A model generated the notes under the pieces. The model worked only from the letters and a program-made list of their open reading frames with translations. It ran no database searches and was not told where the DNA came from. Below are positions 1 through 52,333 of a stretch of DNA of 64,000 nt, piece after piece. Made by a program: the position numbers and the translations under genes. Positions within the stretch are counted from its first letter, which is position 1, and each line of letters begins with the position of its first letter. This stretch comes from an uncultured Actinomycetes bacterium (GTDB lineage: Bacteria; Actinomycetota; Thermoleophilia; UBA2241), in contig CAVYCN010000004.1 in assembly GCA_963767005.1 (NCBI GenBank), positions 32,001 to 96,000 of the forward strand, written 5' to 3'.

Positions 1-278
1 GCCGGGTCGCGCCGCTGCACCTGCTCGAGGCCCTCGCCGGCGGCGCCGACGGCGTCATGGTCGCCGGCTGCCTCGTGGGCCAGTGCCACTATCGCGAGGG
101 CAATCTGAACGCGCTCGACCGGGTGCTGCTCGTGCAGCGCTTGCTCGCCGCGGTCGGCGTCGAGCCCGAGCGCGTGCGCATGTTCACGATGAGCGCCGGC
201 GAGCCGCCGCGCTTCGTGGCCGCCGTGCGCGAGATGGACCGCACGATCGCCGCCCTGCCGCCCCTCGAGAGGTCCTGA
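1..278 (+). CDS. mvhD: MvhD/FlpD-family [2Fe-2S] subunit, 5'-truncated by window edge
   Basis: Frame open from position 3: RVAPLHLLEALAGGADGVMVAGCLVGQCHYREGN...GVEPERVRMFTMSAGE, the MvhD GADGV-xGC-xxxCHY motif. Confidence 0.9.
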   Translation, partial: RVAPLHLLEALAGGADGVMVAGCLVGQCHYREGNLNALDRVLLVQRLLAAVGVEPERVRMFTMSAGEPPRFVAAVREMDRTIAALPPLERS

Positions 279-280
279 CC

Positions 281-760
281 GTGCCCCTCACACAGCGCGG
301 CAGGAGAGTGGCGGAGCGGCTGCCGCACGCCGCGCCCGCGCAGGGCAGCGCCCTCGGCTGCGAGATCGTGCGCCACGAGGAGCTCTGCGTGGGCTGCGGC
401 AAGTGCGCCACCACCTGCCCGAGCGGAGCCAGCGTGCGCGGCACGACCTTCGACGTGAGTCAGCTCCTCGACGCGCCCGAGGGCAGCCGGCGCGGCGCTC
501 TGGGCGCCGCCCTGCGGCGCCTGCAGCGCCGCGCCCCCGACGGCCCGATCGACGTGCCGCCCCGCGTCGCGACCTATCGTACGATCGACTACCAGGCCGA
601 CCTCTGCCTGGGCTGCGGCGCCTGCGCGCGTGTCTGCCCCGCCGCGGCGATCGAGGCACGCGGCCCCGTGGCCGAGCCCGCCGGCGGTGGCGCGGCGGCG
701 CTCGCCGGCGTCGCCCCCGCGGCCGGTCCGGCCGCGGGCGCGGCCGAAGAGGCGTCGTGA
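281..760 (+). CDS. 2x[4Fe-4S] ferredoxin-like protein with long inter-motif insertion
   Basis: CVGCGKCATTCP and CLGCGACARVCP motifs; GTG start at 281 (or 308); stop overlaps next GTG. Confidence 0.8.
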   Translation: MPLTQRGRRVAERLPHAAPAQGSALGCEIVRHEELCVGCGKCATTCPSGASVRGTTFDVSQLLDAPEGSRRGALGAALRRLQRRAPDGPIDVPPRVATYRTIDYQADLCLGCGACARVCPAAAIEARGPVAEPAGGGAAALAGVAPAAGPAAGAAEEAS

Positions 761-3192
761 GCGTGGCCGCGCGACCCCTCGTCCTGCTGTGCGAGTGCGC
801 CGGCACGATGGGCAACGTCGACTTCGACGAGCTCGAGCGGCGCCTCGGTGAACAGGTCGAGGTGCGCCGCGACGCGCACTGGTGCGACCGCCAGGGTCAG
901 GCCCGGCTGCTCGAGCTCATGGAGACCGACGCGCGCCGGCCGGTCTTCGCCGGCTGCTCGCGCGACTTCTCGGACCGGCGCTTCCAGCGCCTCGCGGCGC
1001 GCGGCCTAGCCATGGAGATCGCCGACATCCGCGAGGGCTGCTCCTGGGTCCACGGCGACGAGGCCGGTGACGTGACCGACAAGGCCGAGCGCATCGTGCT
1101 CGCCGCCCTGCGTTATCCGGGCGCGCCGGCCGACACGCTGGCCCGCACGAGCCGCATCGACGGCGTGCTCGTGATCGGCGGCGGCGTGGCCGGCACGCAG
1201 GCCGCCGCCGAGCTCGCCCAGATGGGCCATCGCGTCGAGCTCGTCGAGCGGCGCCCGTTCCTGGGCGGCCGCGCGGCCCGCATCGGCACCGTCTTTCCGA
1301 CCAACGACTGCGGCCAGTGCCTGCCGACGACCGACGCCCAGGCCGGCACCCGCAAGTGCTTCCACCGCAACGTGGCGATCGACCACCCCGGCCTGCACGT
1401 CTGGCGACGCACGACGGTCGAGTCGGTCGACGGCCGCCCCGGCGACTTTGCCGCCACCCTGCGGCGGCTGCCCAACGTCGTGACCGGCGACTGCATCAAC
1501 TGCAGCCGTTGCGAGGCGGTCTGCCCCGAGCTCGCGAGCGACGGCGGGCAGAAGGCGATCTTCGCCGAGTTCTACGACGGCCGCGTCGTGCGCACCGTCG
1601 ACCTCGACACCTGCAGCTTCTGCGGGGCCTGCGTGAAGGAGTGCCCGGTCGACGCGATCGACTTCACGCAGTCGCCCGAACGCGCCACCGTACGGGTCGG
1701 CGCGGTGCTCGCCGCGGTCGGCTGCGAGCCGGCCCCGGCCGAGCTCCTGTCGTACCTCGGCTACGGCCACGACACGGTGCTCACGCAGACCGAGCTCGCC
1801 GAGATGATGGACGACTGGGTGGCCCAGGCCACCGTCGGCCGTACGCCGGCCGCCGAAGTGGTCATGATCCAGTGCGCCGGCTCGCGTGACCGGCGCCGGC
1901 TGCGCTACTGCTCACGCCTGTGCTGCATGATCGCGCTCAAGCACTCGATCCGTCTCAAGCAGCTCTTCCCGCAGATGAAGGTGACGGTCTGCTACACCGA
2001 GCTGCGCACGGCCGGCATCGCCTACGAGAACTGGTACACGGCGGCCCGCCAGGCCGGCGTCGAGTTCCTGCGCGGCACGCCGTCGGGGGTCGAGTTCGAC
2101 GAACGCGGCCTGCCGGTGATCGAGGTCGAAGACATGACGGCGTCCGAGCGGCGCACCCTGCGGCCCGACCTGGTCGTGCTGTCGCACGGTATGGTGCCGG
2201 CCCACGACGTCGGACGCCTCGTCCAGGTGCTCGGCGTCGACGCCGACGCGCACGGGTTCATCGAGATCCTCGACCGCAAGAACAGGGCCACCGAGACCAC
2301 CCGCGAGGGCGTCTTCGTCTGCGGCTCGGCGGCCGGCCCCAAGGCCATCGTCGAGTGCAACACCGAGGCCTCGGCGGTGGCCGCCGAGATCCACAACTTC
2401 CTGGGCTCGGCCGGGCGCCGCATGGCGACCGCCACGGCCGTGCGGGCCGAAGCCTGCGTCGGCTGCGACGTGTGCCAGGAACGCTGCCCCTTCGGCGCGA
2501 TCAGCCTGGTCGAGCGGCCGGCGACGGCGCCGCGGCCGGCCGAGGTCAAGGGCGACGGCCTGCTGGCCGTGGTCGACCCCGAGGCCTGTCACGCCTGCGG
2601 CATCTGCGCCGCCAACTGCCCCGAGATGGCGATCGACCACAACCTGTCCGACGACGCCCTGGCCGGCCGCCTGCACCTGCTGGCCGACGGCGTCGAGCGC
2701 CCGGTCGTCGGCTTCTACTGCAGGGAGTGCGCCGGCGCCGCGATCAGCCTGAGCGGCCTGCGGCACGACCCCTATCCCACGGCGGTGCGCCTGATCGAGC
2801 TGCCCTGCCTGGGTCGTGTGAGCGCCCTGCACCTGGTCGAGGCCGCCCGCATGGGTGCGGCCGGCGTGTTCCTGGCCGGCTGCGCCGAGGGCCGTTGCCA
2901 GTTCCGCACCGGCGACACCAGCGCCGCCGAGCAGGTAGCGCTCACCCGCGAGCTGCTGGCCGAGGCCGGCCTGCGGATGCCGGTCGAGCTCTGGCACCTG
3001 TGCGCGGTCGACCGCGACAGCGTCGGGCGCCGCATCCGCCTGTTCTGCGCGAGCACGCAGAGCGACGAGGCCGCCGCGGCCATGCTGCTGTCCGAGTCCG
3101 ACCGCATCGACCGGCCGGCGAACGGCGCCGGCAGCGGCGCGGCCGCGCCCGTCGGCGCCAGGCTCGCCGGGGAGGCGCGCGATGACGGCTAG
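757..3192 (+). CDS. hdrA: HdrA-family FAD/Fe-S protein with C-terminal MvhD domain fused
   Basis: N-terminal CEC...IREGCSWVH, GGGVAG FAD motif, FPTNDC, four CxxCxxCxxxCP motifs, CAGSRD..YCSRLCC, C-terminal FYCREC..LPCLGRV..GAAGVFLAGC..CQF; GTGA overlap at 757. Confidence 0.9.
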   Translation: MSVAARPLVLLCECAGTMGNVDFDELERRLGEQVEVRRDAHWCDRQGQARLLELMETDARRPVFAGCSRDFSDRRFQRLAARGLAMEIADIREGCSWVHGDEAGDVTDKAERIVLAALRYPGAPADTLARTSRIDGVLVIGGGVAGTQAAAELAQMGHRVELVERRPFLGGRAARIGTVFPTNDCGQCLPTTDAQAGTRKCFHRNVAIDHPGLHVWRRTTVESVDGRPGDFAATLRRLPNVVTGDCINCSRCEAVCPELASDGGQKAIFAEFYDGRVVRTVDLDTCSFCGACVKECPVDAIDFTQSPERATVRVGAVLAAVGCEPAPAELLSYLGYGHDTVLTQTELAEMMDDWVAQATVGRTPAAEVVMIQCAGSRDRRRLRYCSRLCCMIALKHSIRLKQLFPQMKVTVCYTELRTAGIAYENWYTAARQAGVEFLRGTPSGVEFDERGLPVIEVEDMTASERRTLRPDLVVLSHGMVPAHDVGRLVQVLGVDADAHGFIEILDRKNRATETTREGVFVCGSAAGPKAIVECNTEASAVAAEIHNFLGSAGRRMATATAVRAEACVGCDVCQERCPFGAISLVERPATAPRPAEVKGDGLLAVVDPEACHACGICAANCPEMAIDHNLSDDALAGRLHLLADGVERPVVGFYCRECAGAAISLSGLRHDPYPTAVRLIELPCLGRVSALHLVEAARMGAAGVFLAGCAEGRCQFRTGDTSAAEQVALTRELLAEAGLRMPVELWHLCAVDRDSVGRRIRLFCASTQSDEAAAAMLLSESDRIDRPANGAGSGAAAPVGARLAGEARDDG

Positions 3193-4366
3193 CGAGACGG
3201 CCCGCCGCGAGGTGGCCGCCCTGGCGGCCGAGAACCGGCTCTGCTACCAGTGCGGCCAGTGCACGGCCGTCTGCCCGAGCGGCGCCGACCTCGAGGGCGG
3301 ACCGCGGCGCGTGATGCGCTACGTCCTGACAGAGCAGGTCGAGCGCCTGCTCGGCAGCGACGACGTCTGGCGCTGCACCGGCTGCGGCTCGTGCACCGAC
3401 GTCTGCCCCATGGAACTCGACGTCGCCGGCACGCTCGCCCGTCTGCGGGCCCTGGGTCACGAAGGCCCCGGGGCGCGCTGCCCCGAGCGTGCCGCGGCGC
3501 AGGTCGCGGCCCGTCGCCTGGCCGGCCACGACGAGATCGACTCGATGGCCTTCGGCGTGGCCATGGCGCTGCGCGGCCACGTGCCGGCCGACGTGGTGAG
3601 CGCCGCCGGCGCCGCCTCGCGCCTCGCGCGCCACCGCCTGCGGCGATCCCGACCCGACGGCGCGGCCACACCGACACCGACGCCCGCCGGCTCGGCAGCG
3701 GACGGCGCGGCGGCGGCCGCCCGGACGTTCTACCCCGGCTGCGCCCTGCGCCAGGACCCACCGCTCCTCGCCCAGACCCGCATGGTGGCAAGCGAGCTCG
3801 GTCTGCCGCTCGGCGAGCCGGCCGGCGCCGTGTGCTGCGGGCATCCGAGCCGCGGCGCGACGCCGGCGCGCTTTGCCAGCGACGGCGAGGTGCTGAACGC
3901 CTGTCCGGCGTGCGACAGCAGCCTGAGCGAGAGCGGCGTGACCACGAGACCGCTGTGGGAGGCCCTCATCGACGGCGCCGCGCGCGACGGGCGCCGCCTG
4001 CGCGCGGCCGAGCCGGCCTTCGTGCCCTACGTCGGCTGCCTGTCGGAGCGCGACCCGGCGCTCGCCGCCCTGGCCGCCGCCGGCGAGCTTGCTGCGTCGT
4101 CCTGTCTCACCTCGTACCCCTCGCTGCACTCGGGCTGCTGCGGCGCCCTGGGCGGCATGTATCGCGCCGAGACGCGCGCCACGCGACGGCTGCTCGACTA
4201 CGCCGCGACACACGCCGCGCCGGTCGTCACGACCTGCTTGCTGTGCCGCGACAACCTGCGCTCGGCCGCGCGCCGGCGCGGGCCGTCGGTCCCGATCTAC
4301 TTCTGGCCCGAGTTCTTCGGCGCGGCCGGCCCGGCCGGCGCCGCCCCTGGAGGCGACCATGACTGA
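3182..4366 (+). CDS. HdrC-HdrB fusion (4Fe-4S dicluster plus two compact CCG domains)
   Basis: CYQCGQCTAVCP, WRCTGCGSCTDVCP, then FYPGC..CCG..CPAC and YVGC..CCG..CLLC. Confidence 0.8.
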   Translation: MTASETARREVAALAAENRLCYQCGQCTAVCPSGADLEGGPRRVMRYVLTEQVERLLGSDDVWRCTGCGSCTDVCPMELDVAGTLARLRALGHEGPGARCPERAAAQVAARRLAGHDEIDSMAFGVAMALRGHVPADVVSAAGAASRLARHRLRRSRPDGAATPTPTPAGSAADGAAAAARTFYPGCALRQDPPLLAQTRMVASELGLPLGEPAGAVCCGHPSRGATPARFASDGEVLNACPACDSSLSESGVTTRPLWEALIDGAARDGRRLRAAEPAFVPYVGCLSERDPALAALAAAGELAASSCLTSYPSLHSGCCGALGGMYRAETRATRRLLDYAATHAAPVVTTCLLCRDNLRSAARRRGPSVPIYFWPEFFGAAGPAGAAPGGDHD

Positions 4367-5021
4367 GCACGACGAACACAACAACCCGTACTCGGTGATC
4401 GCCGGGAGCGAGTTCCACGAGCGTCCGGCGGCGCGCCGCGACCTGGTCGACCGCATCCTCGACGACCCCCGCATGCACGACCACCGCGAGGGCTTCCTGT
4501 CGTGCCTGCAGTGCGGCGTGTGCACGTCGGGCTGCCCGGCGGCGCGCTTCACCGAGTACTCGCCCCGCGAGGTCGCGCGGCGCGCCTCCGAGGGCGACCC
4601 CACGCTGCTCGAGGACGACACCATCTGGTACTGCTTCTACTGCTACACCTGCCAGAGCCGCTGCCCGCGCAAGAACAGCGTCGCCGTGATCAACCAGGTC
4701 GTGCGCAGCATGCAGGTCGAGAGCGGCTACGGCATCAAGCACGTCGAGATGTTCGCCGCCTGGGGCGAGCAGTTCTACGACAAGGGCATGGGCGGCACGC
4801 CGCACGTGTTCTTCAGCGACATCGCCGAGGCCTGGGGACCGAAGTGGAAGGAGTTCATCGCCAACCGGGACGCCCTCCGCGAGGAGATCGGCGTGGGCGG
4901 CATGTACCCCTCCGCCGCGGCGGTGAGCGAGGTGCGCGCCATCATGGACCAGACCGGCTTCAAGGCGCGGCTCGAGAGCCTGGGCTCGTGGGGCGGCCAC
5001 CGGCCCGACGACGACGAGTAG
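4359..5021 (+). CDS. hdrC: HdrC-family 4Fe-4S dicluster subunit
   Basis: CLQCGVCTSGCP, IWYCFYCYTCQSRCP; GGAGG RBS before ATG 4359. Confidence 0.85.
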   Translation: MTEHDEHNNPYSVIAGSEFHERPAARRDLVDRILDDPRMHDHREGFLSCLQCGVCTSGCPAARFTEYSPREVARRASEGDPTLLEDDTIWYCFYCYTCQSRCPRKNSVAVINQVVRSMQVESGYGIKHVEMFAAWGEQFYDKGMGGTPHVFFSDIAEAWGPKWKEFIANRDALREEIGVGGMYPSAAAVSEVRAIMDQTGFKARLESLGSWGGHRPDDDE

Positions 5022-5185: not shown

Positions 5186-6097
5186 ATGACCGACTTCAGC
5201 GACCAGCAACAGCGCCTGCGCGACCTCGCCGCCGAGCGCGGCGCGATCATCCTGGCGCACAACTACCAGCGGCCCGAGGTGCAGGACGCCGCCGACGTCG
5301 TGGGCGACTCGCTCGAGCTCGCCCGCAAGGCGGCCGCCACCGACGCCGCGGTGATCCTCTTCTGCGGCGTCCACTTCATGGCCGAGACGGCCAAGATCCT
5401 GTCACCCGACAAGACCGTGCTCATGCCCGACCCGCACGCCGGCTGCCCGATGGCCGACATGGTCACGGTCGAGGGGCTGCGCGCCCTCAAGGCCGAGCAC
5501 CCCGAGGCAGCGGTCGTCGCCTACGTCAACACGAGCGCCGAGATCAAGGCCGAGGTCGACGTCTGCTGCACGAGCGCCAACGCGCCCGAGGTCGTGGCCC
5601 GCATCCCGGCCGAGCGGCCCATCATCTTCGTCCCCGACCGTAACCTCGGCGACTGGGTGGCGCAACGTAGCGGCCGCACGAACATGATCATGTGGCAAGG
5701 GTACTGCCCGGTGCACGAGGACATGACGGCCGACGAGGTCCGCGCGGCGCTCGACGCGCACCCCGACGCCGAGCTCATGGCGCACCCGGAGTGCGCCCGC
5801 GAGGTGCGCGACCTGGCCACCGTGATCACGAGCACGTCGGGCATGCTGCGCTACCCCGCGACGAGCGCGACGCGCGCCTTTGTCGTGGCGACCGAGACAG
5901 GCCTGCTGCACCGCCTGCGCGGCGTGTACCCCGACCGCGAGTTCGTGCCGGCCGCACGCGGCGCGATCTGCCCCAACATGAAGCGCACCACGCTCGACAA
6001 GGCGATCGAGACGCTCGACGAGGGCTTGAACGAGATCGTCGTGCCGCCGCAGGTCGCCGCCCGCGCCCTGGTCGCGGTCGAGCGCATGATGGGCTGA
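5186..6097 (+). CDS. nadA: Quinolinate synthase
   Basis: ILAHNYQRPEVQ, FCGVHFMAETAKIL, AGCPMAD, YVNTSA, CPVH, AHPEC, CPNMK. Confidence 0.96.
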   Translation: MTDFSDQQQRLRDLAAERGAIILAHNYQRPEVQDAADVVGDSLELARKAAATDAAVILFCGVHFMAETAKILSPDKTVLMPDPHAGCPMADMVTVEGLRALKAEHPEAAVVAYVNTSAEIKAEVDVCCTSANAPEVVARIPAERPIIFVPDRNLGDWVAQRSGRTNMIMWQGYCPVHEDMTADEVRAALDAHPDAELMAHPECAREVRDLATVITSTSGMLRYPATSATRAFVVATETGLLHRLRGVYPDREFVPAARGAICPNMKRTTLDKAIETLDEGLNEIVVPPQVAARALVAVERMMG

Positions 6098-45136: not shown

Positions 45137-45811
45137 GTGCACCCGCGACGAGAGGCAGACGCCACGACCACGCCGCTCACCTCGACCCCGACTTCTCCGG
45201 CGAGACCCACGCCGGCCGGCCGGCCGGCCTCTCCGGAGCCCCTGGCCGCCTACGTCCGCCGCACGGCCGGGACCGACGTGGCGCGCTGCTACCAGTGCGG
45301 CAAGTGCTCGGCCGGCTGCCCGATGGGCCCGGAGATGGCGCTGCCGCCGCATGCGATCATGCGTCTCACGCTCGCCGACGACCGCGCCCGCCTGTTCGCC
45401 GACGACTCGCTCTGGCTGTGTCTCACCTGCGAGACCTGCAGCGCGCGCTGCCCCAAGGACGTCGACCCGGCGCGCGTGATCGACGCGCTGCGCGAGCTCG
45501 CGGCCGTCGAGGGCGCGGCGCACGCCCCGCGCGCGGTGCACGCCTTCCACCAGTCGTTCCTCGAGCAGATCCGCACGAACGGCCGCCTGTCCGAGGTGGG
45601 CCTCGTCATGCAGTACAAGCTGCGCGGCGGCGGGCTGCTGCAGGACGTCACGACCGCGCCGGCGATGCTGCGCCGCGGCAAGCTGCCGCTGCGCCCCCAG
45701 CGCATCGCCGGCGTGGCCGACGTGCGGCGCCTCATGGCGGCCTGCAAGCGGGAGCGCGCCCACAGCGCCCACTGCGCCGACTGGCCGGCCGACGGCGGAG
45801 GGCCGGCGTGA
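45137..45811 (+). CDS. hdrC: Heterodisulfide reductase subunit C
   Basis: CYQCGKCSAGCP, LWLCLTCETCSARCP, FLEQIRTNGRLSE; start uncertain. Confidence 0.9.
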   Translation: MHPRREADATTTPLTSTPTSPARPTPAGRPASPEPLAAYVRRTAGTDVARCYQCGKCSAGCPMGPEMALPPHAIMRLTLADDRARLFADDSLWLCLTCETCSARCPKDVDPARVIDALRELAAVEGAAHAPRAVHAFHQSFLEQIRTNGRLSEVGLVMQYKLRGGGLLQDVTTAPAMLRRGKLPLRPQRIAGVADVRRLMAACKRERAHSAHCADWPADGGGPA

Positions 45812-46767
45812 GCCTCGCCTACTACCCCGGCTGCTCCATGCACGGCACCTCGCGCGAGTACGAGGAGAGCCTGCTGGCCGTGGCGGTCGCGCTCGACGTC
45901 GAGCTCGACGAGCTCGACGACTGGAGCTGCTGCGGGGCCAGCTCGGCGCACGCCGCCGACCACCTGCTGGGCGTCGCCCTGCCGGCTCGCAACCTGGCCC
46001 TCGCCGAGGCCCAGGGTGCCGACCGCGTCCTCGCGCCCTGCGCCGCCTGCTACAACCGCCTGTCGGGCGCGGCCCATGCGGTCGCCGCCGAGCCCGGCAT
46101 GGCGCCCAGGGTACGCGACGTGCTCGAGCGGCCGTTCGCGAACACCGTCAAGGTGGTCAGCATCGTGGAGCTGCTCCAGGGCCTCGCGCCGGCCATCGAG
46201 GAGCGCGTCGCGGCACGCCTCGAACCCAACCCGCTCGCGCACCTGAGCGTGGCCGCCTACTGGGGCTGCCTGCTGGTGCGGCCGGCCGACGCGACCGGCT
46301 TCGACGACACGGAGCGGCCGGTCGGCATGGACGAGGTGGTCGCCGCCTGCGGCGCCCGCCCGGCGCGCTGGAACATGGCGGTCGAGTGCTGCGGCGGGGC
46401 CTTCTCGATCGCGCGCACGAGCTCGGTCCTGCGCCTGAGCCGGGCCATCATCGACGACGCCCGGCGCTGCGGCGCCGACGCCATCGTCGCGGCCTGCCCG
46501 CTCTGTCACGCCAACCTCGATTTTCGCCAGAGCGCGATGAGCCTGAAGGGCGCCCCACCGATGCCCGTGCTCTACATCACTCAGCTCGTCGGCCTCGCCC
46601 TGGGGCTGCCGCTCGACCTGCTCGGCTTCGAGCGCCACTTCGTCGACACCCAGCCGCTCCTCGCGCGCCTGGCCGGCGACGCGCGGCGGGCGGCCGCTGA
46701 GGCCGCCGCACGCGAGGCGGCCCGGGCGGCGAAGGCCGCCGCCGGCACGACCGGAGCCGCGACGTGA
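45808..46767 (+). CDS. hdrB: Heterodisulfide reductase subunit B
   Basis: YYPGCS, DWSCCGA, PCAAC, YWGCLL, ECCGG, ACPLCHANLD, PVLYITQLVGLALG. Confidence 0.93.
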   Translation: MSLAYYPGCSMHGTSREYEESLLAVAVALDVELDELDDWSCCGASSAHAADHLLGVALPARNLALAEAQGADRVLAPCAACYNRLSGAAHAVAAEPGMAPRVRDVLERPFANTVKVVSIVELLQGLAPAIEERVAARLEPNPLAHLSVAAYWGCLLVRPADATGFDDTERPVGMDEVVAACGARPARWNMAVECCGGAFSIARTSSVLRLSRAIIDDARRCGADAIVAACPLCHANLDFRQSAMSLKGAPPMPVLYITQLVGLALGLPLDLLGFERHFVDTQPLLARLAGDARRAAAEAAAREAARAAKAAAGTTGAAT

Positions 46768-48788
46768 GCCGCATCGGCGTCTTCGTCTGCCACTGCGGCG
46801 AGAACATCGCCCGCACGGTCGACTGCGCCGCGGTCGCCGACGCCCTGCGCGAGCACCCCGGCGTGGTGCGCGCCGAGGACTATAAGTACATGTGCTCCGA
46901 CCCGGGCCAGCAGCTCGTGAAGAGGGCGATCGAGGAGGACGGCCTCACCGGTGTCGTGGTCTGCGCCTGCTCGCCGCACATGCACGAGGCGACCTTCCGC
47001 CGCGCGGCCGCCCAGGCCGGCCTCAACCCCTTCGTGGTCGAGATGGCCAACATCCGCGAGCACTGCTCGTGGATCCACGACGACCGCGAGCGCGCCACGG
47101 CCAAGGCGATCGACATCGGCCGCACCCTCGTGGAAAAGGTCAAGCAGGACCGGCCGCTCGATACCATTCGCATCCCCGTCACCAAGCGGGCGCTGGTGAT
47201 CGGCGGCGGCATCGCCGGCATCCAGGCGGCGCTCGACATCGCCGACGGCGGGCACGAGGTCGTGCTGGTCGAGAGGGAGGCCTCGATCGGCGGCCATATG
47301 AGCCAGCTCTCCGAGACCTTCCCCACGCTCGACTGCTCGCAGTGCATCCTCACGCCGCGCATGGTCGAAACCTACCAGCACCCGCGCATCACACTGCACA
47401 CCTGGAGCGAGATCGAGAAGGTCGACGGCTACATCGGCAACTTCAGCGTGACGATCCGCAAGAAGGCGCGCTCGGTCGATGAGGACCTGTGCAACGGCTG
47501 CGGCGACTGCCAGGCGGCCTGCCCGAACCGCAGGATCACGAGCGAGTTCGACGCCGGGCTGGGCAAGCGCACCGCGATCTCCACCCCGTTCCCCCAGGCC
47601 GTCCCCAACATCCCGGTGCTCGACCGCGCCAACTGCACGCTGTTCAAGGGCCGCGCCAAGGGACTCAAAAAGGACGCCTGCGGCAAGTGCAAGGAGGCCT
47701 GCCTGAAGGGCGCGATCGACTACGACTCCGAGGACACGTTCGTGACCGAGGAGGTCGGCGCGATCGTGGTGGCGACCGGTTTCCAGCTCTACGACATCGG
47801 CCGCGAGCAGCCGGCGGGCCTCAAGGGCTACGGCGAGTACGGCTACGGCGAGGTGCCCGACGTGATCGACGGCCTCCAGTTCGAGCGCCTGGCGAGCGCG
47901 TCCGGGCCGACCGGCGGCGAGATCGTGCGGCCCTCCGACGGCGCCGTGCCCAAAACGGTCGTGTTCGTCAAGTGCGTGGGCTCGCGCGACCCCGAGAAGG
48001 GCATGGCCTACTGCTCCAAGATCTGCTGCATGTACACGGCCAAGCACACCATGCTCTACAAGCACAAGGTGCACGACGGGCGCGCCGTGGTCTTCTACAT
48101 GGACATCAGGGCCGCGGGCAAGGGCTACGACGAGTTCAGCCGGCGGGCGATCGAGGAGGACGGCGCCGAGTACGTGCGCGGGCGGGTGAGCCGCATCTTC
48201 CGCGACGGCGACGTGGTGAAGGTCTGGGGCTACGACACCCTGGCCGACCGCCAGGTCGTGATCGACGCCGACATGGTCGTGCTGGCCACCGCCGTGCGAC
48301 CCCAGCCCGGCATCGCCGAGCTCGCCCAGAAGCTGTCGGTGAGCTACGACCAGGACGGCTTTCTGAACGAGGCCCATCCCAAGCTGCGCCCGGTCGAGAC
48401 CAACACCGCCGGCGTCTACCTGGCCGGCGCCTGCCAGGCGCCGCGCGACATCCCCGAGTCGGTCGCCATGGCAGGCGCGACGGCGGCCAAGGTGCTCGGC
48501 CTGTTCAGCGCCGACGAGCTCGAGCGCGACCCGTCGGTGGCCCTGGTGAACGAACGCACCTGCAGCGGCTGCTTTCACTGCGAGCGCGTCTGTCCCTACG
48601 GTGCGATCGAGCATCGCGACGTCTGCGACATGGAGGGCCACGTCTGCGGTCACGTCGCCTGGGTCAACCCCGGCGTCTGCCAGGGCTGCGGCACCTGCGT
48701 GGCAGTGTGCCCCTCGAAGAGCGTTGAGCTGGCCGGCTTCACCGACAGCCAGGTCTATGCCGAGATAAACGCGCTGGCGGGATGGTGA
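46764..48788 (+). CDS. hdrA: Heterodisulfide reductase subunit A
   Basis: IGVFVCHCG, YMCSDPGQ, ACSP, ANIREHCSW, GGGIAG, TFPTLDC, FERL..SGPTGG, CVGSRD, YCSKICCMYTAK. Confidence 0.96.
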   Translation: MSRIGVFVCHCGENIARTVDCAAVADALREHPGVVRAEDYKYMCSDPGQQLVKRAIEEDGLTGVVVCACSPHMHEATFRRAAAQAGLNPFVVEMANIREHCSWIHDDRERATAKAIDIGRTLVEKVKQDRPLDTIRIPVTKRALVIGGGIAGIQAALDIADGGHEVVLVEREASIGGHMSQLSETFPTLDCSQCILTPRMVETYQHPRITLHTWSEIEKVDGYIGNFSVTIRKKARSVDEDLCNGCGDCQAACPNRRITSEFDAGLGKRTAISTPFPQAVPNIPVLDRANCTLFKGRAKGLKKDACGKCKEACLKGAIDYDSEDTFVTEEVGAIVVATGFQLYDIGREQPAGLKGYGEYGYGEVPDVIDGLQFERLASASGPTGGEIVRPSDGAVPKTVVFVKCVGSRDPEKGMAYCSKICCMYTAKHTMLYKHKVHDGRAVVFYMDIRAAGKGYDEFSRRAIEEDGAEYVRGRVSRIFRDGDVVKVWGYDTLADRQVVIDADMVVLATAVRPQPGIAELAQKLSVSYDQDGFLNEAHPKLRPVETNTAGVYLAGACQAPRDIPESVAMAGATAAKVLGLFSADELERDPSVALVNERTCSGCFHCERVCPYGAIEHRDVCDMEGHVCGHVAWVNPGVCQGCGTCVAVCPSKSVELAGFTDSQVYAEINALAGW

Positions 48789-48794
48789 GCGTCG

Positions 48795-49379
48795 ATGCCT
48801 GAGACGACGAGCGACGGCCGCGAGTCGAGGATCTTCGAGCCGCGCATCACCGCCTTCGTGTGCAACTGGTGCACCTATACCGGCGCCGACCTGGCCGGCA
48901 CGAGCCGGCTGCCCATGGCGAGCAACGTGCGCATCATCCGCCTGCCCTGTACCGGCCGCATCGACCACCTCTTCATCGTCAAGGCCTTCGAGCGCGGCGC
49001 CGACGGGGTGATCGTGAGCGGCTGCCACCCGGCCGACTGTCACTACACGGCCGGCAACTACCACGCCCGGCGCCGCTTCGGCGTGTTCCGCGAGCTGCTC
49101 TCGTTCCTGGGTGTCGACCCCCGCCGCCTGACCTTCTCGTGGGTCTCGGCCTCGGAGGGCGGCAAGTGGGCCGCGGTCGTGAACGAGACGGTCGCCCGGG
49201 TGCGCGAGCTGGGGCCGTTCGACGCCTATCACCGGCTCGCCGACGCGCCGCCGCCCGACGGCGACCCGTTCGCCGCGCTCGCGGGCACGGACGGCTCGCT
49301 CGAGGCGGCCGGCGGCGATGGAGCGTTCACAGTCGACGCCGCCGCCCCCGATCCGGCCGGCGAGGGGGGCGCCCGGTGA
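48795..49379 (+). CDS. flxD: FlxD/MvhD [2Fe-2S] subunit
   Basis: FVCNWCTYTGADLAG, LPCTGRI, GADGVIVSGCHPADCHY, WVSASEG. Confidence 0.92.
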   Translation: MPETTSDGRESRIFEPRITAFVCNWCTYTGADLAGTSRLPMASNVRIIRLPCTGRIDHLFIVKAFERGADGVIVSGCHPADCHYTAGNYHARRRFGVFRELLSFLGVDPRRLTFSWVSASEGGKWAAVVNETVARVRELGPFDAYHRLADAPPPDGDPFAALAGTDGSLEAAGGDGAFTVDAAAPDPAGEGGAR

Positions 49380-50254
49380 GCGAGCTGCAGGACACCGCCC
49401 GCCGCCTGCTCGAGGACGGCACGGTACAGGTGGTGATCGGCTGGGAGGCCGGTCGCCGCGGCGTCCGCCCGGCCTTCGTGACCGACGCCGCCGGCTGTGA
49501 CCGGCTCGTCTTCGACGCGCGCTGCGTGCACGACCTTGCCGTCTTTGTGAACCCGCGGCGCTCTCAGGTCGCCGCCCTCGGCAGGGCCGCCCTCGTGGTC
49601 AAGGGCTGCGACGCCAAGGCGGTGGCCGGGCTGCTGCGCGAGGCGCAGCTCACCCGCGACCAGGTCGTGCTCATCGGCGTGCGCTGCGGCGGCGTCGCGA
49701 CCGGCCCCGAGGGGTCCGAACCGCCGGCGCTCACCGCCGACACCGTCGCCGCGCGCTGTCACGGCTGCGACGTGCGCGAGCCGGCCGGCGTCGACGTGCT
49801 CGTCGGCGAGCCGCAGAAGGAGCTTCCCGTCGAGCCCACGCTCGACGAGCGCGTGGCGGCGCTCGACGCCCTGAGCCCCGCCGAGCGCCTCGCCTTCTGG
49901 ACCGCTGAGCTCGCGCGCTGCACGCAGTGCTACGCCTGCCGCCAGGCCTGCCCGCTGTGCTACTGCGAACGCTGCGTCGTCGAGAAGAGCGAGCCGCAGT
50001 GGATCGAGACCTCGCCGCACGCGCGCGGCAACTTCGCCTGGCATCTCACGCGCGCCCAGCACCTGGCCGGTCGCTGCGTGGGCTGCGGCGAGTGCGAACG
50101 GGCCTGCCCGGTCGGCATCCCCCTCGGCCTGATCAACCGCAAGCTGCAGCAGGTCGTCTACGAGCTCTACGGCTACACGGTGAGCGACGACCCGGCGGTG
50201 CCGGCGCCGATCGGCGCCTACGCCGTCGACGACACTCAGGACTTCATCCGATGA
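49376..50254 (+). CDS. flxC: FlxC Fe-S subunit
   Basis: KGCD, CHGC, RCTQCYACRQACPLCYC..C, HLAGRCVGCGECERACP. Confidence 0.88.
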   Translation: MSELQDTARRLLEDGTVQVVIGWEAGRRGVRPAFVTDAAGCDRLVFDARCVHDLAVFVNPRRSQVAALGRAALVVKGCDAKAVAGLLREAQLTRDQVVLIGVRCGGVATGPEGSEPPALTADTVAARCHGCDVREPAGVDVLVGEPQKELPVEPTLDERVAALDALSPAERLAFWTAELARCTQCYACRQACPLCYCERCVVEKSEPQWIETSPHARGNFAWHLTRAQHLAGRCVGCGECERACPVGIPLGLINRKLQQVVYELYGYTVSDDPAVPAPIGAYAVDDTQDFIR

Positions 50255-50313
50255 ACGACTTCATCGTCATCGCCCACGCCGGCGCGACGTTTGTTGCGCG
50301 CCTGGTCCGATGA
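50251..50313 (+). CDS. Putative 20-aa intra-operon peptide MNDFIVIAHAGATFVARLVR
   Basis: ATGA overlap with the flxC stop and ATGA overlap with the flxB start. Confidence 0.45.
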   Translation: MNDFIVIAHAGATFVARLVR

Positions 50314-51488
50314 GCGAGCGGGCGACAGACGGCGGCCACGGTCCGGCGACGGTCGGCGACTCCGCCGCGGGCGCGGTGCCGCGCCGGGTCCTGCTGCTGA
50401 CCGACGACGCCGTCGCGGCGCTCGTCGAGGAGCTCGCCACCGCCGGCGCGCCGGCGGTGGCGCCGGCGTGGGCCGGCGGAGCCGGCCGCGCCGCCGACGC
50501 CCCCGGCGCGCCGCGCGAGACCGAGTACCGGCCGGTGACGGGCGCGGCCGAGCTCGCCTTCGGCGAGCGGCTGCCGCGCCTCTCCCTCAAGCAGCTCTTC
50601 CTGCCGCCGACCGAGGTGCTCTTCTCGTGGCGGCGCGGCGCCGGCGACGTCGAGCTCACCCCGGCGCCCACCGACGTGCCCGCGCGAGTCGTGCTCGGTG
50701 CGCGGCCCTGCGACGTCGCCGCCCTGCCGATCGTCGACCGCGTGATGAACTGGGACTACGCCGACGAGCTCTGGAACGCGCGGCGCGCGGCGACCACCGT
50801 CTTCAGCCTGGCCTGCGGCGTCGAGGACGGATCGTGCTTCTGCTCCGCCGTGTTCCTCGAGCCAGCGACGACCAGGGGCTCCGACGGACGGCTGACGCCG
50901 GTCGACGGCGGCTACCTGGTCGAGACGTTCAGCGACAAGGGCGACGCGTTCGTCGCGGCTCACGCCGACCGGTTCACCGATTCGCCCGCCGGCGCGGCGG
51001 GCGACGAGCTGCGCGGCCAGGCCGGCGCCTTCCGGGCCGCGGCTCGCGAGCGCGTCGCGGCCAATCTGCGCCTCGACCACGACCGCGTGCGCGACTGGCT
51101 CGAGCACCACTTCGACGACCCCTTCTGGGCCAGCCTCGGGCCGCGCTGCAACGGCTGTGGCGTGTGCTCGTCGGTCTGCCCCACGTGCCACTGCTTCGAC
51201 ATCGTCGACGAGCCCGAGAGCGTGGGCCGCGGCGTGCGGCGGCGCAACTGGGACACCTGCCAGACCTGCGTGTTCACGCTGCATGCCTCGGGCCACAACC
51301 CGCGCGCCGACCAGAACGCCCGCTACCGCCAGCGCGTCGAGCACAAGTTCCTCGTCTACCCGGCCCGCTTCGGCGACGTGCTCTGCACCGGCTGCGGCCG
51401 CTGCTCGCGCGCCTGCCCGACCGGGCAGGACCTGACCGAGATCCTGGCGGCGATCGGCGACCGCGCCGGCAGCGGAGCGCCGTCGTGA
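50310..51488 (+). CDS. flxB: FlxB Fe-S subunit (AsrA/HydB-like)
   Basis: GARPCD, CFC, RCNGCGVCSSVCPTCHCF, RNWDTC, RYRQRVEHK, CTGCGRCSRACP. Confidence 0.9.
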   Translation: MSERATDGGHGPATVGDSAAGAVPRRVLLLTDDAVAALVEELATAGAPAVAPAWAGGAGRAADAPGAPRETEYRPVTGAAELAFGERLPRLSLKQLFLPPTEVLFSWRRGAGDVELTPAPTDVPARVVLGARPCDVAALPIVDRVMNWDYADELWNARRAATTVFSLACGVEDGSCFCSAVFLEPATTRGSDGRLTPVDGGYLVETFSDKGDAFVAAHADRFTDSPAGAAGDELRGQAGAFRAAARERVAANLRLDHDRVRDWLEHHFDDPFWASLGPRCNGCGVCSSVCPTCHCFDIVDEPESVGRGVRRRNWDTCQTCVFTLHASGHNPRADQNARYRQRVEHKFLVYPARFGDVLCTGCGRCSRACPTGQDLTEILAAIGDRAGSGAPS

Positions 51489-52333
51489 GCGGCGGGCCGG
51501 CGAGCAACCTCTATCAGCCCGACCTCGTCGTGGTCGAGGCGATCACCGACGAGACGCCCGACACGCGCACCTACCGCCTGCGCTTCCGCGACCCCGAGCG
51601 CGCCGCGGCCTTCACGTTCCGCGCCGGGCAGTTCGGCGAGTACTCGGTGTTCGGCGCCGGCGAGTCGACCTTCTGCATCGCGAGCCCGCCGACGCGCACG
51701 GGCTACCTGGAGTGCACCGTCAAGGCCGCCGGCAAGGTCACCGGCAGCCTGCGCCAGGTCGACGTCGGCGACCTGCTCGGCTTTCGCGGCCCCTACGGCA
51801 ACGCCTTCCCGATCGAAGAGTGGGAGGGCCGCGACCTCGTCTTCATCGCCGGCGGCATCGGCCTCGCGCCCGTGCGCTGCGTCATCTGGAACGTGCTCGA
51901 CCGGCGCGAGCGCTACGGCGACGTGACGATCGTCTACGGCGCCCGCAGCGTGGCCGACCTCGTCTACAAGCACGAGCTCGAGGAGTGGGCCGCGCGCGAC
52001 GACGTGCGCCTGGTCACGACCGTCGACCCCGGCGGCGAGACGCCGGAGTGGCACGGCGAGGTGGGCTACGTGACGCCGGTGGTCGAGCGCACCGCGCCGC
52101 GCGCCGCGGGCGCCGTCGCGGTGCTCTGTGGGCCGCCGATCGTAGTCAAGCTGACGCTGCCGGTGCTCGCGCAGCTCGGCTTCGCCGACGAGGCCGTGTA
52201 CACGACCCTCGAGAACCGCATGAAGTGCGGCGTCGGCAAATGCGGGCGCTGCAACATCGGCTCCGTCTACGTCTGCAAGGACGGCCCCGTGTTCACCGCG
52301 TCCCAGCTCAAGGCGCTGCCTCAAGATTATTAG
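51485..52333 (+). CDS. flxA: FlxA FAD/NAD-binding [2Fe-2S] subunit (AsrB/PyrK-like)
   Basis: AGQF, RGPYGN, IAGGIGLAP, YGAR, CGPP, ENRMKCGVGKCGRCN..VCKDGPVF. Confidence 0.92.
   Translation: MSGGPASNLYQPDLVVVEAITDETPDTRTYRLRFRDPERAAAFTFRAGQFGEYSVFGAGESTFCIASPPTRTGYLECTVKAAGKVTGSLRQVDVGDLLGFRGPYGNAFPIEEWEGRDLVFIAGGIGLAPVRCVIWNVLDRRERYGDVTIVYGARSVADLVYKHELEEWAARDDVRLVTTVDPGGETPEWHGEVGYVTPVVERTAPRAAGAVAVLCGPPIVVKLTLPVLAQLGFADEAVYTTLENRMKCGVGKCGRCNIGSVYVCKDGPVFTASQLKALPQDY

Follow-up and report, generated by a model that had tools for sequence, protein, structure and literature searches.

The 64,000-nucleotide window analysed here (C4:32001-96000 of the host genome, G000, from an uncultured Actinomycetes bacterium) opens inside an operon of seven genes related to heterodisulfide reductase (Hdr), all on the + strand and arranged as hdrB, hdrL, mvhD, fdx (a ferredoxin gene), hdrA::mvhD, the fusion gene hdrC::hdrB' and hdrC (Table 1). 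The original prediction, made from the letters of the window alone, described the last five genes as a closely packed, mostly overlapping cluster with two MvhD domains, two HdrC domains and a split ferredoxin. All five open reading frames are present, open and on the + strand, and the domains are borne out by Pfam and NCBIfam, but the cluster extends further than proposed, with hdrB and the 1117-residue hdrL upstream on the same strand; the operon starts 4.5 kb left of the window, which holds its 3' end. The mvhD gene itself begins 192 nucleotides (nt) left of the window, leaving only its 3' part inside. Within the window the genes overlap at three of four junctions (by 4, 11 and 8 nt), while mvhD and fdx are separated by 2 nt; across the whole operon five of six junctions overlap by 4–11 nt, each of the upstream overlaps being 4 nt. 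All seven belong to a single operon, which is intact and conserved.

Gene order was identical in the regions of all 20 relatives fetched, as far as the contigs extend, which answers the call of the original prediction for a synteny check: 12 regions are fully intact, two are cut by contig ends and six are frameshifted, at scattered positions that probably reflect assembly indels. In a separate set, the 37 best-matching of 52 metagenome loci, 18 carry all seven genes and the remainder are collinear and cut by contig ends. Two pairwise comparisons gave ratios of nonsynonymous to synonymous substitution rates (dN/dS) of 0.15–0.45 for all seven genes, which are thus under purifying selection. Genes frameshifted or decaying in relatives, the outcome that would have told against the original prediction, were not what we found, as open reading frames, these dN/dS values and invariant cluster ligands (below) rule out decay of the operon.

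Of the 55 other genomes in the host's family, placed in the Thermoleophilia from the record titles of relatives, in agreement with the actinobacterial host originally proposed, 46 gave a match to the fusion gene; none did among 245 genomes from 11 other families of the class. Copies elsewhere come from a planctomycete (one of 251 genomes sampled from the phylum), one deltaproteobacterial contig and proteins labelled Acidimicrobiales and Ca. Dormibacteria; this occurrence in other phyla is one of scattered transfers, and the planctomycete HdrB nests within the Thermoleophilia sequences in the HdrB tree. Mis-binning of the planctomycete copy is unlikely, since its flanks, cysK apart, have no matches in the host genome; from recognisable motifs we take those flanks to be planctomycete-like. 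In two loci (L062:6537-13108 and G284:C9) the 3' end of the operon, comprising part of hdrA::mvhD, the fusion gene and hdrC, is tandemly duplicated, either genuinely or as an assembly artefact. Genes for a [NiFe]-hydrogenase large subunit, a maturation protease and HypA stand directly 5' of hdrB on the same strand in L122, L136 and L139 (positions 1-2200); such upstream genes occur in three of the four Dormibacteria-like loci inspected, where the upstream motif also differs.

The two HdrA proteins have both lost residues associated with electron bifurcation. With residues numbered as in 5ODC, and counted over de-duplicated full-length bacterial sequences from which frameshifted fragments were dropped, Ala or Ser replaces Glu356 and Leu replaces Lys409 in 40 of 40 HdrL sequences, whereas HdrA::MvhD has Ala, Ser or Thr for Glu356 and keeps Lys409 (58/58). 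In the same alignment canonical archaeal HdrA and the host's own Mvh- and Flx-linked HdrA keep both residues. Together Glu356 and Lys409 are the proposed mark of bifurcating HdrA (PMC12054007; PMC9430772), and all nine archaeal type III HdrA keep them (PMC12054007). Because Glu356 is lost in both HdrA, and Lys409 in HdrL as well, these sequences make electron bifurcation of the classical kind unlikely, and bifurcation, one of the two functions offered in the original prediction, is not supported as the leading reading.

HdrL is distinguished by a GltD-like insert for flavin adenine dinucleotide (FAD) and NAD(P)H, matched by Pfam Fer4_20 and Pyr_redox_2 at residues 290–683, between the halves of the inserted-ferredoxin motif, with mvhD as the next gene. 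The insert is present in 38 of 40 orthologues, and in loci L074 and L158 a plain HdrA lacking it takes the place of HdrL. Its best solved relatives are NfnA/StnC-type subunits (E 6e-113), among them structure 8OH5, which we take to be StnC. Residues 546–548 read YRR, the NADP type, in 20 of the 38 orthologues and an acidic C(I/V)E in 14, switching among lineages. An electron-input module had been expected to the left of the window, and this GltD/NfnA-like NAD(P)H insert fits that expectation. Both the hydrogenase genes of the Dormibacteria-like loci and the absence of the insert from two loci suggest an exchangeable electron input.

The remaining cofactor sites are strongly conserved. In MvhD, Cys34, 37, 63, 88 and 93 are invariant (52/52), and the MvhD part of HdrA::MvhD, a fusion of type Ia architecture (the type of Methanosarcina HdrA2), retains Cys658 in 58/58 and Cys684, 709 and 714 in 57/58 sequences; the protein scores 456 bits against NF040770 (type Ia HdrA), under the cut-off of 1100, and has an invariant extra Cys201 in a short insert after the FPTxDCxxC motif. 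The stand-alone HdrB has His209 in place of the Cys193 equivalent in 46/46 sequences and so does not contain two five-Cys non-cubane sets. The fused B' domain has full five-Cys ligand sets in 68/68, and all 18 expected ligands of the fusion (8 cubane and 10 CCG Cys) are invariant, which rules out a degenerate B' domain. Its layout, a 2x[4Fe-4S] domain and then two CCG domains within a single polypeptide, is that of HdrD/sHdrB3. The Pfam CCG match is weak (E 1.6e-4), but an AlphaFold model (pLDDT 88) aligns to HdrB with Z ~16 over ~205 residues at a root-mean-square deviation (rmsd) of 2.9-3.1, and on this model the match represents a real CCG domain; homologues with CCG domains only were read as N-terminally mis-called copies. 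The ferredoxin carries two CxxCxxCxxxC motifs ~60 residues apart and a conserved basic helical insert, with nine Cys, including a ninth at Cys27, invariant in 57/57 sequences. A fold search with its model (pLDDT 84) gave no match at E 0.001 or better, only weak generic ferredoxin ones, the best being FwdF (E 8e-3).

Phylogenetic analysis, which the original prediction had called for, brought out an archaeal affinity that it had missed. We built quick trees with SH-aLRT supports and no bootstrap, of HdrB (128 rows, comprising 110 of 150 homologue matches and the loci) and of the HdrA core (59 rows, 17 near-duplicate archaeal rows being left out); they carry a long-branch warning and hold no labelled Methanosarcina rows or HdrL rows from sulfate-reducing bacteria. 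Methanobacteriales NF041780 proteins form the sister group of the cluster HdrB (SH-aLRT 96), within a group whose labelled members are archaeal. In the HdrA tree a branch with SH-aLRT 99, subject to the long-branch warning, has HdrL, HdrA::MvhD and archaeal MvhD-fused HdrA together on one side. In these trees HdrB and both HdrA thus group with the second, MvhD-fused Hdr of Methanobacteriota. The fused B' stands on a long branch (2.2 substitutions) with no supported sister, and the profile used for this comparison misses even the operon's own HdrB. Scores against the corresponding NCBIfam families, which for HdrC and HdrB are the best-scoring ones, are 204 of the required 270 for HdrC (NF041890, hdrC_Methbact), 330 of 450 for HdrB (NF041780) and 574 and 336 of 1300 for the two HdrA (NF041891), while Methanobrevibacter control proteins pass; since all score below the cut-offs, the cluster proteins are relatives and not members of these families. 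For the last gene, hdrC, the nearest named non-bacterial match is from Methanobrevibacter (40%).

The archaeal relative, annotated as 'ferredoxin:CoB-CoM heterodisulfide reductase' (NF041890/NF041780/NF041891), resembles the operon in several respects. All 12 MvhD-fused second HdrA of Methanobacteriota in the tree have lost Glu356 and kept Lys409, the Cys193 equivalent of HdrB is His in a Methanosphaera-cluster relative and Thr in Methanobrevibacter, and sulfur or coenzyme M (CoM) genes are neighbours. It differs in comprising three genes and not seven, the second HdrA, the GltD insert, the ferredoxin and the CB' fusion all being absent. Of 11 such hdrCBA loci, four lie among comA, marker-16 and comDE genes (comA falling outside the fetched stretch in L118), three come after a moeB/ubaA-like gene and two after cysS, and the last two show none of these neighbours. 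HdrA1B1C1 of M. acetivorans probably belongs to this kind, to judge from one control genome that passes both NF041780 and NF041778 and from the Swiss-Prot naming. A review describes HdrA1 without an MvhD fusion, which fits this link imperfectly (PMC6019823). Marker 16 is CoM synthase, and under CoM starvation M. acetivorans raises hdrABC together with genes for CoM synthesis and uptake (PMC12068725); sulfide helps its hdrA1B1C1 mutant (PMC9963511).

Regions 5' of hdrB share a box, ATAAG-N5-CTTAT, placed directly before the -35 element and present within two mismatches at 27 of 41 hdrB loci, against ~1.1 in shuffles. It conforms to T-N11-A, the LysR pattern. The same box recurs across the start of a LysR gene beside comA. 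This gene passes NF040786, has YeiE as its next closest family and lies near comA in 11 of 15 comA neighbourhoods. A position weight matrix trained on 24 hdrB promoters, scanned over loci preselected by box match or comA proximity, gave 11 non-hdr sites of at least 19 bits, ten of which precede yezD-ABC-GTPase-iscS-FeS, cysK, cysH-tauE, taurine ABC-xsc or sulfate ABC genes (the last identified from their translations, with only a TOBE domain from Pfam). A second scan of 60 of 76 pattern sites in 10 genomes, some hdrB sites being in the training set, returned 14 distinct sites of at least 19 bits, comprising seven of hdrB, four of sulfur operons and three unrelated; all five distinct sites above 24 bits belong to hdrB or sulfur operons. 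Among relatives 42 of 60 have a strong LysR match. It is missing from the host genome, G011 and G027, and the host genome and G011 have only a weak paralogue and no box. In the family comA was found in 46/60 genomes, cysH in 21/60 and NIR_SIR, the siroheme sulfite reductase domain, in 1/61.

Sulfur genes also neighbour the operon or occur elsewhere in the host. A moeB-cysK / yezD-iscS-comA island adjoins the operon in G013, six further loci have cysK close to the operon, and the host genome has two cysK and a yezD-iscS-cysK island. This island, at G000 C4:234928-239982 and L226:5330-9348, encodes YezD (DUF2292), an ABC ATPase, a CobW/HypB GTPase, IscS, an iron-sulfur (FeS) protein and CysK; in relatives the yezD-iscS island stands under the same LysR box, and its FeS protein belongs to no family beyond PF04060. 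It is no obligate partner of the operon, occurring in only 13 of 61 family genomes. In the family comA lies mostly among MBOAT-, glycosyltransferase- and sugar aminotransferase-like genes (L182-L196, from translations), a context that hints at a sulfolactate-modified surface polymer. The original prediction had noted no genes for CoM or coenzyme B (CoB) in view, and neither ComA, DsrC nor a marker-16 protein was found in the host genome. DsrC was set aside as a substrate on that count, and CoM synthesis in the host family likewise, marker-16 being absent from 61 genomes as judged with one archaeal query and no positive control; CoM/CoB is likely not the substrate.

Taken together, these data lead us to favour, tentatively and at somewhat short of even confidence, a non-bifurcating, two-armed Hdr-type complex for NAD(P)H-driven cleavage of the S-S bond in sulfane compounds, which would supply sulfide and sulfite to biosynthesis. 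The HdrA homodimer would be replaced by a heterodimer of HdrL and HdrA::MvhD, each with its own MvhD, free or fused. One arm would consist of HdrC and HdrB with the His-substituted non-cubane site, the other of the fused HdrC::HdrB' with all-Cys sites, and the small ferredoxin would act as a dedicated wire or low-potential donor. Electrons from NAD(P)H would enter at the GltD insert by way of its FAD and pass along its clusters, the inserted ferredoxin clusters and the HdrA flavins, which may be plain relays, and thence through HdrC-type cubanes to the non-cubane clusters, where the S-S bond would be split as in methanogen HdrB. Candidate substrates are a protein persulfide, thiosulfate or an S-sulfonate; CysK would receive the sulfide and ComA the sulfite. 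Control would lie with a YeiE/CysL-like LysR regulator, which would also govern cysH, taurine desulfonation and sulfate uptake. We favour reductive sulfane cleavage because it is ordinary Hdr chemistry, could provide for CysK and ComA alike and runs in a favourable direction with NAD(P)H for persulfides; for thiosulfate, electrons of low potential would be required. For two arms there is a precedent in the predicted sHdrAA'C1B1C2B2 and in sHdrB3, a C2-B2 fusion (PMC11094781).

Several observations weigh against this proposal. Three of the 14 distinct sites scoring at least 19 bits are not near sulfur genes, and genome-wide counts of the simple box do not exceed the reversed control (34 vs 57; 33 vs 32; 43 vs 43). 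In the host genome, which lacks the box, the best matrix score is 1.4, there is no site of at least 19 bits, and neither the LysR orthologue nor comA, cysH, tauE or xsc was found, yet the operon is kept intact; with regulator, box and comA gone, it would serve the cysK/iscS side only. G020 has the operon without comA or cysH, while the comA-bearing G018, G028, G033 and G104 gave no fusion-gene match, and across 56 genomes the association of the operon with comA is weak (37/10/4/5; Fisher p 0.048) and confounded by kinship and completeness. Dormibacteria-like loci lack the box (3-4 mismatches), which together with their upstream hydrogenase genes suggests other wiring there. The four com-linked archaeal loci are apparently two pairs of close kin, and their context can also be read as CoM-disulfide recycling. 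Finally, with Lys409 kept in HdrA::MvhD, some bifurcation may be possible.

The same parts could run in the oxidative direction, as in the sHdr systems that turn sulfane sulfur into sulfite with two different B/C arms (PMC11094781). CysK would then fix sulfide, IscS would provide persulfide, the two B sites would oxidise it to sulfite for ComA, and the archaeal sister enzyme would make sulfite for CoM synthesis. The context of comA, which adjoins the regulator gene and is the neighbour common to the bacterial and archaeal contexts, suits this direction, and the other regulon members (cysH, xsc and sulfate uptake) are themselves sulfite sources. The operon is indeed present in 23 of 25 comA-bearing genomes lacking cysH, but this is near the base rate of 47/56, and ten of 47 operon carriers, the host genome among them, lack comA. 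No LbpA gene was noticed beside the operon, though no profile search for it was made. Energetically, oxidation of sulfane sulfur to sulfite with NAD(P)+ (about -40 to -116 mV vs -320 mV) would be strongly uphill for an anaerobe, and we regard this direction as unlikely.

A plainer role would be that of a disulfide reductase of general use, driven by NAD(P)H or ferredoxin, that maintains a small thiol or the thiols of proteins in reduced form, much as in CoM recycling, its co-regulation reflecting thiol status only. This reading has the merit of conservative Hdr chemistry and of persistence of the operon where regulator and comA are lost. It also agrees with the up-regulation of M. acetivorans hdrABC, which has been interpreted in print as CoM recycling (PMC12068725). 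It leaves unexplained the two catalytic arms with different ligand sets and the box common to uptake and desulfonation genes, and the failure to find marker-16 in the 61 genomes, for which there was no positive control, does not help it; we consider it distinctly unlikely.

The scarcity of NIR_SIR would be accounted for if the complex were a siroheme-independent assimilatory sulfite reductase in the place of CysJI, reducing sulfite (probably as S-sulfonate) to sulfide with NADPH within a CysL-like regulon. CysL controls cysJI in B. subtilis. Sulfate uptake, cysH, xsc and cysK are all part of the regulon, the NADP-type YRR motif occurs in 20 of 38 inserts and the reaction would be downhill. Non-cubane clusters, however, are known for two-electron S-S and not six-electron S-O chemistry. 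The limited spread of cysH, the lack of any recognised sulfite source found in the host genome, the presence of cysH and xsc without the operon in G033, and the archaeal com context, which would go unexplained, all make this reading improbable.

Least credible, and in our view very improbable, is energy-conserving bifurcation from NAD(P)H or H2 to a disulfide and the encoded ferredoxin, in line with one option of the original prediction: two HdrA, two MvhD, a dedicated ferredoxin, the retained Lys409 of HdrA::MvhD, the hydrogenase genes 5' of three of four inspected Dormibacteria-like loci and the ANME (anaerobic methanotrophic archaea) double-HdrA and HdrD clusters proposed to bifurcate twice (PMC12054007) speak for it, but Glu356 is absent from every sequence of both HdrA and Lys409 from HdrL, against nine archaeal type III proteins with both, the host is already served by three conventional Hdr systems, each retaining both residues in one or more flavin domains, and there is no acetyl-CoA synthase link, at least nine operon carriers lacking CdhC and six non-carriers having it. 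A Wood-Ljungdahl link was ruled out on the same ground, as CdhC (38 of 60 genomes) is uncoupled from the operon.

Set against known systems, the operon is conserved and, as the original prediction held, distinct, but its parts list is not new, since the HdrD/sHdrB3 fusion and HdrL clusters have been published. Clusters of HdrL, HdrA, MvhD, an FeS protein and HdrBC, with or without HdrD, are in print (PMC2702500, PMC5947623), as are two-HdrA and HdrD clusters in ANME (PMC12054007). The closest by description are locus VIII of Desulfobacterium autotrophicum (HdrL/HdrA-MvhD-FdhB-HdrCB-HdrD), which includes an HdrCB fusion, and HdrABC/HdrL of Syntrophobacter fumaroxidans (Sfum_0819-0824), with no hydrogenase large subunit in the cluster (PMC2702500, PMC5947623). 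Both have nearly the same parts as the operon, sharing with it a GltD-containing HdrL, a second HdrA, MvhD, a small FeS protein, HdrB and HdrC; they differ in gene order, in an FdhB-like FeS protein where a 159-residue ferredoxin is found here, and in lacking the MvhD-second HdrA fusion. This likeness is one of published parts lists. For S. fumaroxidans the published proposal is a confurcating complex that serves DsrC (PMC2702500, PMC5947623), a protein not found in our host genome.

Type II sHdr (sHdrA, C1, B1, H and B3) is likewise predicted to be asymmetric, with two unlike B/C arms, one a C-B fusion, and sulfane chemistry (PMC11094781). It differs in that sHdrA is a short (~350 aa) homodimer and sHdrB3 binds one non-cubane cluster, whereas the fusion here has both sets, and in that the operon has no sHdrH, EtfAB or EMO and stands in the regulated biosynthetic context of an anaerobe rather than a dissimilatory one. 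Judged by gene order and HdrA lengths against the published description (PMC11094781), neither the order shdrC1B1AHC2B2 nor C1B1AHB3-etfAB-emo with a short sHdrA was encountered. Structure 6TJR is only a weak match to the cluster HdrA (E 4e-27). We take 6TJR to be sHdrA, which is said, in work attributed to Ernst et al. 2021, to be non-bifurcating. The best whole-chain fold match of the CB' fusion is mycobacterial EtfD (PDB 9OJN; Z 16.2, 327 residues, rmsd 3.5), in which CCG domains can be non-catalytic wires; EtfD differs in possessing a membrane heme domain and in its changed ligands (Thr539, His583) (PMC13083937), while CB' has no such domain and all ten CCG Cys. A literature search, judged by titles and abstract openings, turned up no description of the operon or of Hdr in the host family, nor any account of this order of genes, of the twofold loss of the bifurcation signature, of the affinity to archaea or of the link to a sulfur regulon.

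Four other hdr loci lie in the host genome, of Mvh type (contig C18), Flx type (in the window), Moorella MetVF type (C7) and linked to TusA/DsrE (C16), which makes the operon a fifth, separate Hdr system. Canonical HdrABC-MvhAGD, Flx-Hdr and Moorella HdrCBA-MvhD-MetVF share domains and folds with it, but are encoded at these separate loci, show ~27-50% identity and keep Glu356/Lys409 in at least one flavin domain. Neither metV nor metF occurs in the operon, the sole methylenetetrahydrofolate reductase match being in the separate C7 operon, and CdhC was not found in the host genome despite its Moorella-type genes. TusA and DsrE, absent from the operon's conserved neighbours, are both encoded at the C16 locus, a candidate separate sulfur-handling Hdr by its gene content; a YeiH-family gene and a weaker YeiE-like LysR lie near it. 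On C19, the in-frame TGA of a formate dehydrogenase-like gene probably encodes selenocysteine. As for the immediate flanks of the operon, nadA (window 5186-6097) follows it in ~25 loci, and the heme-synthesis genes hemE, hemH and hemG (C4:23176-26814, from translations) precede it divergently in ~12-16; these neighbours are read as lineage synteny.

Table 1 Features of the seven-gene operon and of other loci in the host genome (G000).
Feature	Location	Strand	Description
hdrB	C4:27496-28461 (left of window)	+	321 aa; His209 at the Cys193-equivalent ligand
hdrL	C4:28458-31811 (left of window)	+	1117 aa; HdrA with GltD/NfnA-like FAD and NAD(P)H insert at ~290-765
mvhD	C4:31808-32278; window part 1..278	+	156 aa; [2Fe-2S] adaptor; Pfam FlpD E 2e-42
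Ferredoxin (fdx)	281..760	+	159 aa; 2x[4Fe-4S]
hdrA::mvhD	757..3192	+	811 aa; type Ia architecture; Pfam FlpD at residues 650-741
hdrC::hdrB' fusion	3182..4366	+	394 aa; HdrD/sHdrB3-like; 2 cubane motifs and 2 compact CCG domains; highly divergent
hdrC	4359..5021	+	220 aa; 2x[4Fe-4S]
Promoter-like site before hdrB	C4:27435-27463		LysR-type box decayed in the host genome
hdrCBA-flxDCBA-type operon	Window 45278-52330	+	HdrC, HdrB, HdrA with Glu/Lys, MvhD-like, two Fe-S proteins, NAD-binding FlxA-like
hdrA (1488 aa)-mvhD-metV-metF-hdrC-hdrB	L075:6056-14243 (G000 contig C7)		Moorella-type
tusA-mvhD-hdrL-hdrA-small genes-CCG protein-dsrE-dsrE	L076:7746-15424 (G000 contig C16)
Canonical hdrCBA-mvhDGA	L077:4473-11320 (G000 contig C18)		With hydrogenase maturation genes
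Molybdopterin oxidoreductase match	L078:13461-15071 (G000 C19:162081-163349)		Formate dehydrogenase-like; one in-frame TGA

Beyond the host, a further possibility, which we hold as doubtful, is that the operon is the prototype of an anabolic Hdr lineage, to which the second Hdr of methanogens would also belong, for siroheme-free interconversion of sulfane or sulfide and sulfite. If true, this would be a new kind of assimilatory sulfite reductase, or a source of sulfite for phosphosulfolactate and CoM synthesis in sulfide-grown anaerobes and methanogens. The findings also suggest a testable job for the methanogens' little-studied second Hdr, whose probable counterpart in Methanosarcina, a genus open to genetics, shows sulfide- and CoM-dependent phenotypes (PMC9963511, PMC12068725). 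Bacterial Hdr clusters are commonly classed as bifurcating enzymes that conserve energy and act on unknown disulfides; in this case the promoter box, the scarcity of sulfite reductase and an archaeal sister found among CoM genes point instead to biosynthetic sulfur chemistry, and give a testable list of substrates and a family-level marker for a common anaerobic lineage of actinobacteria.

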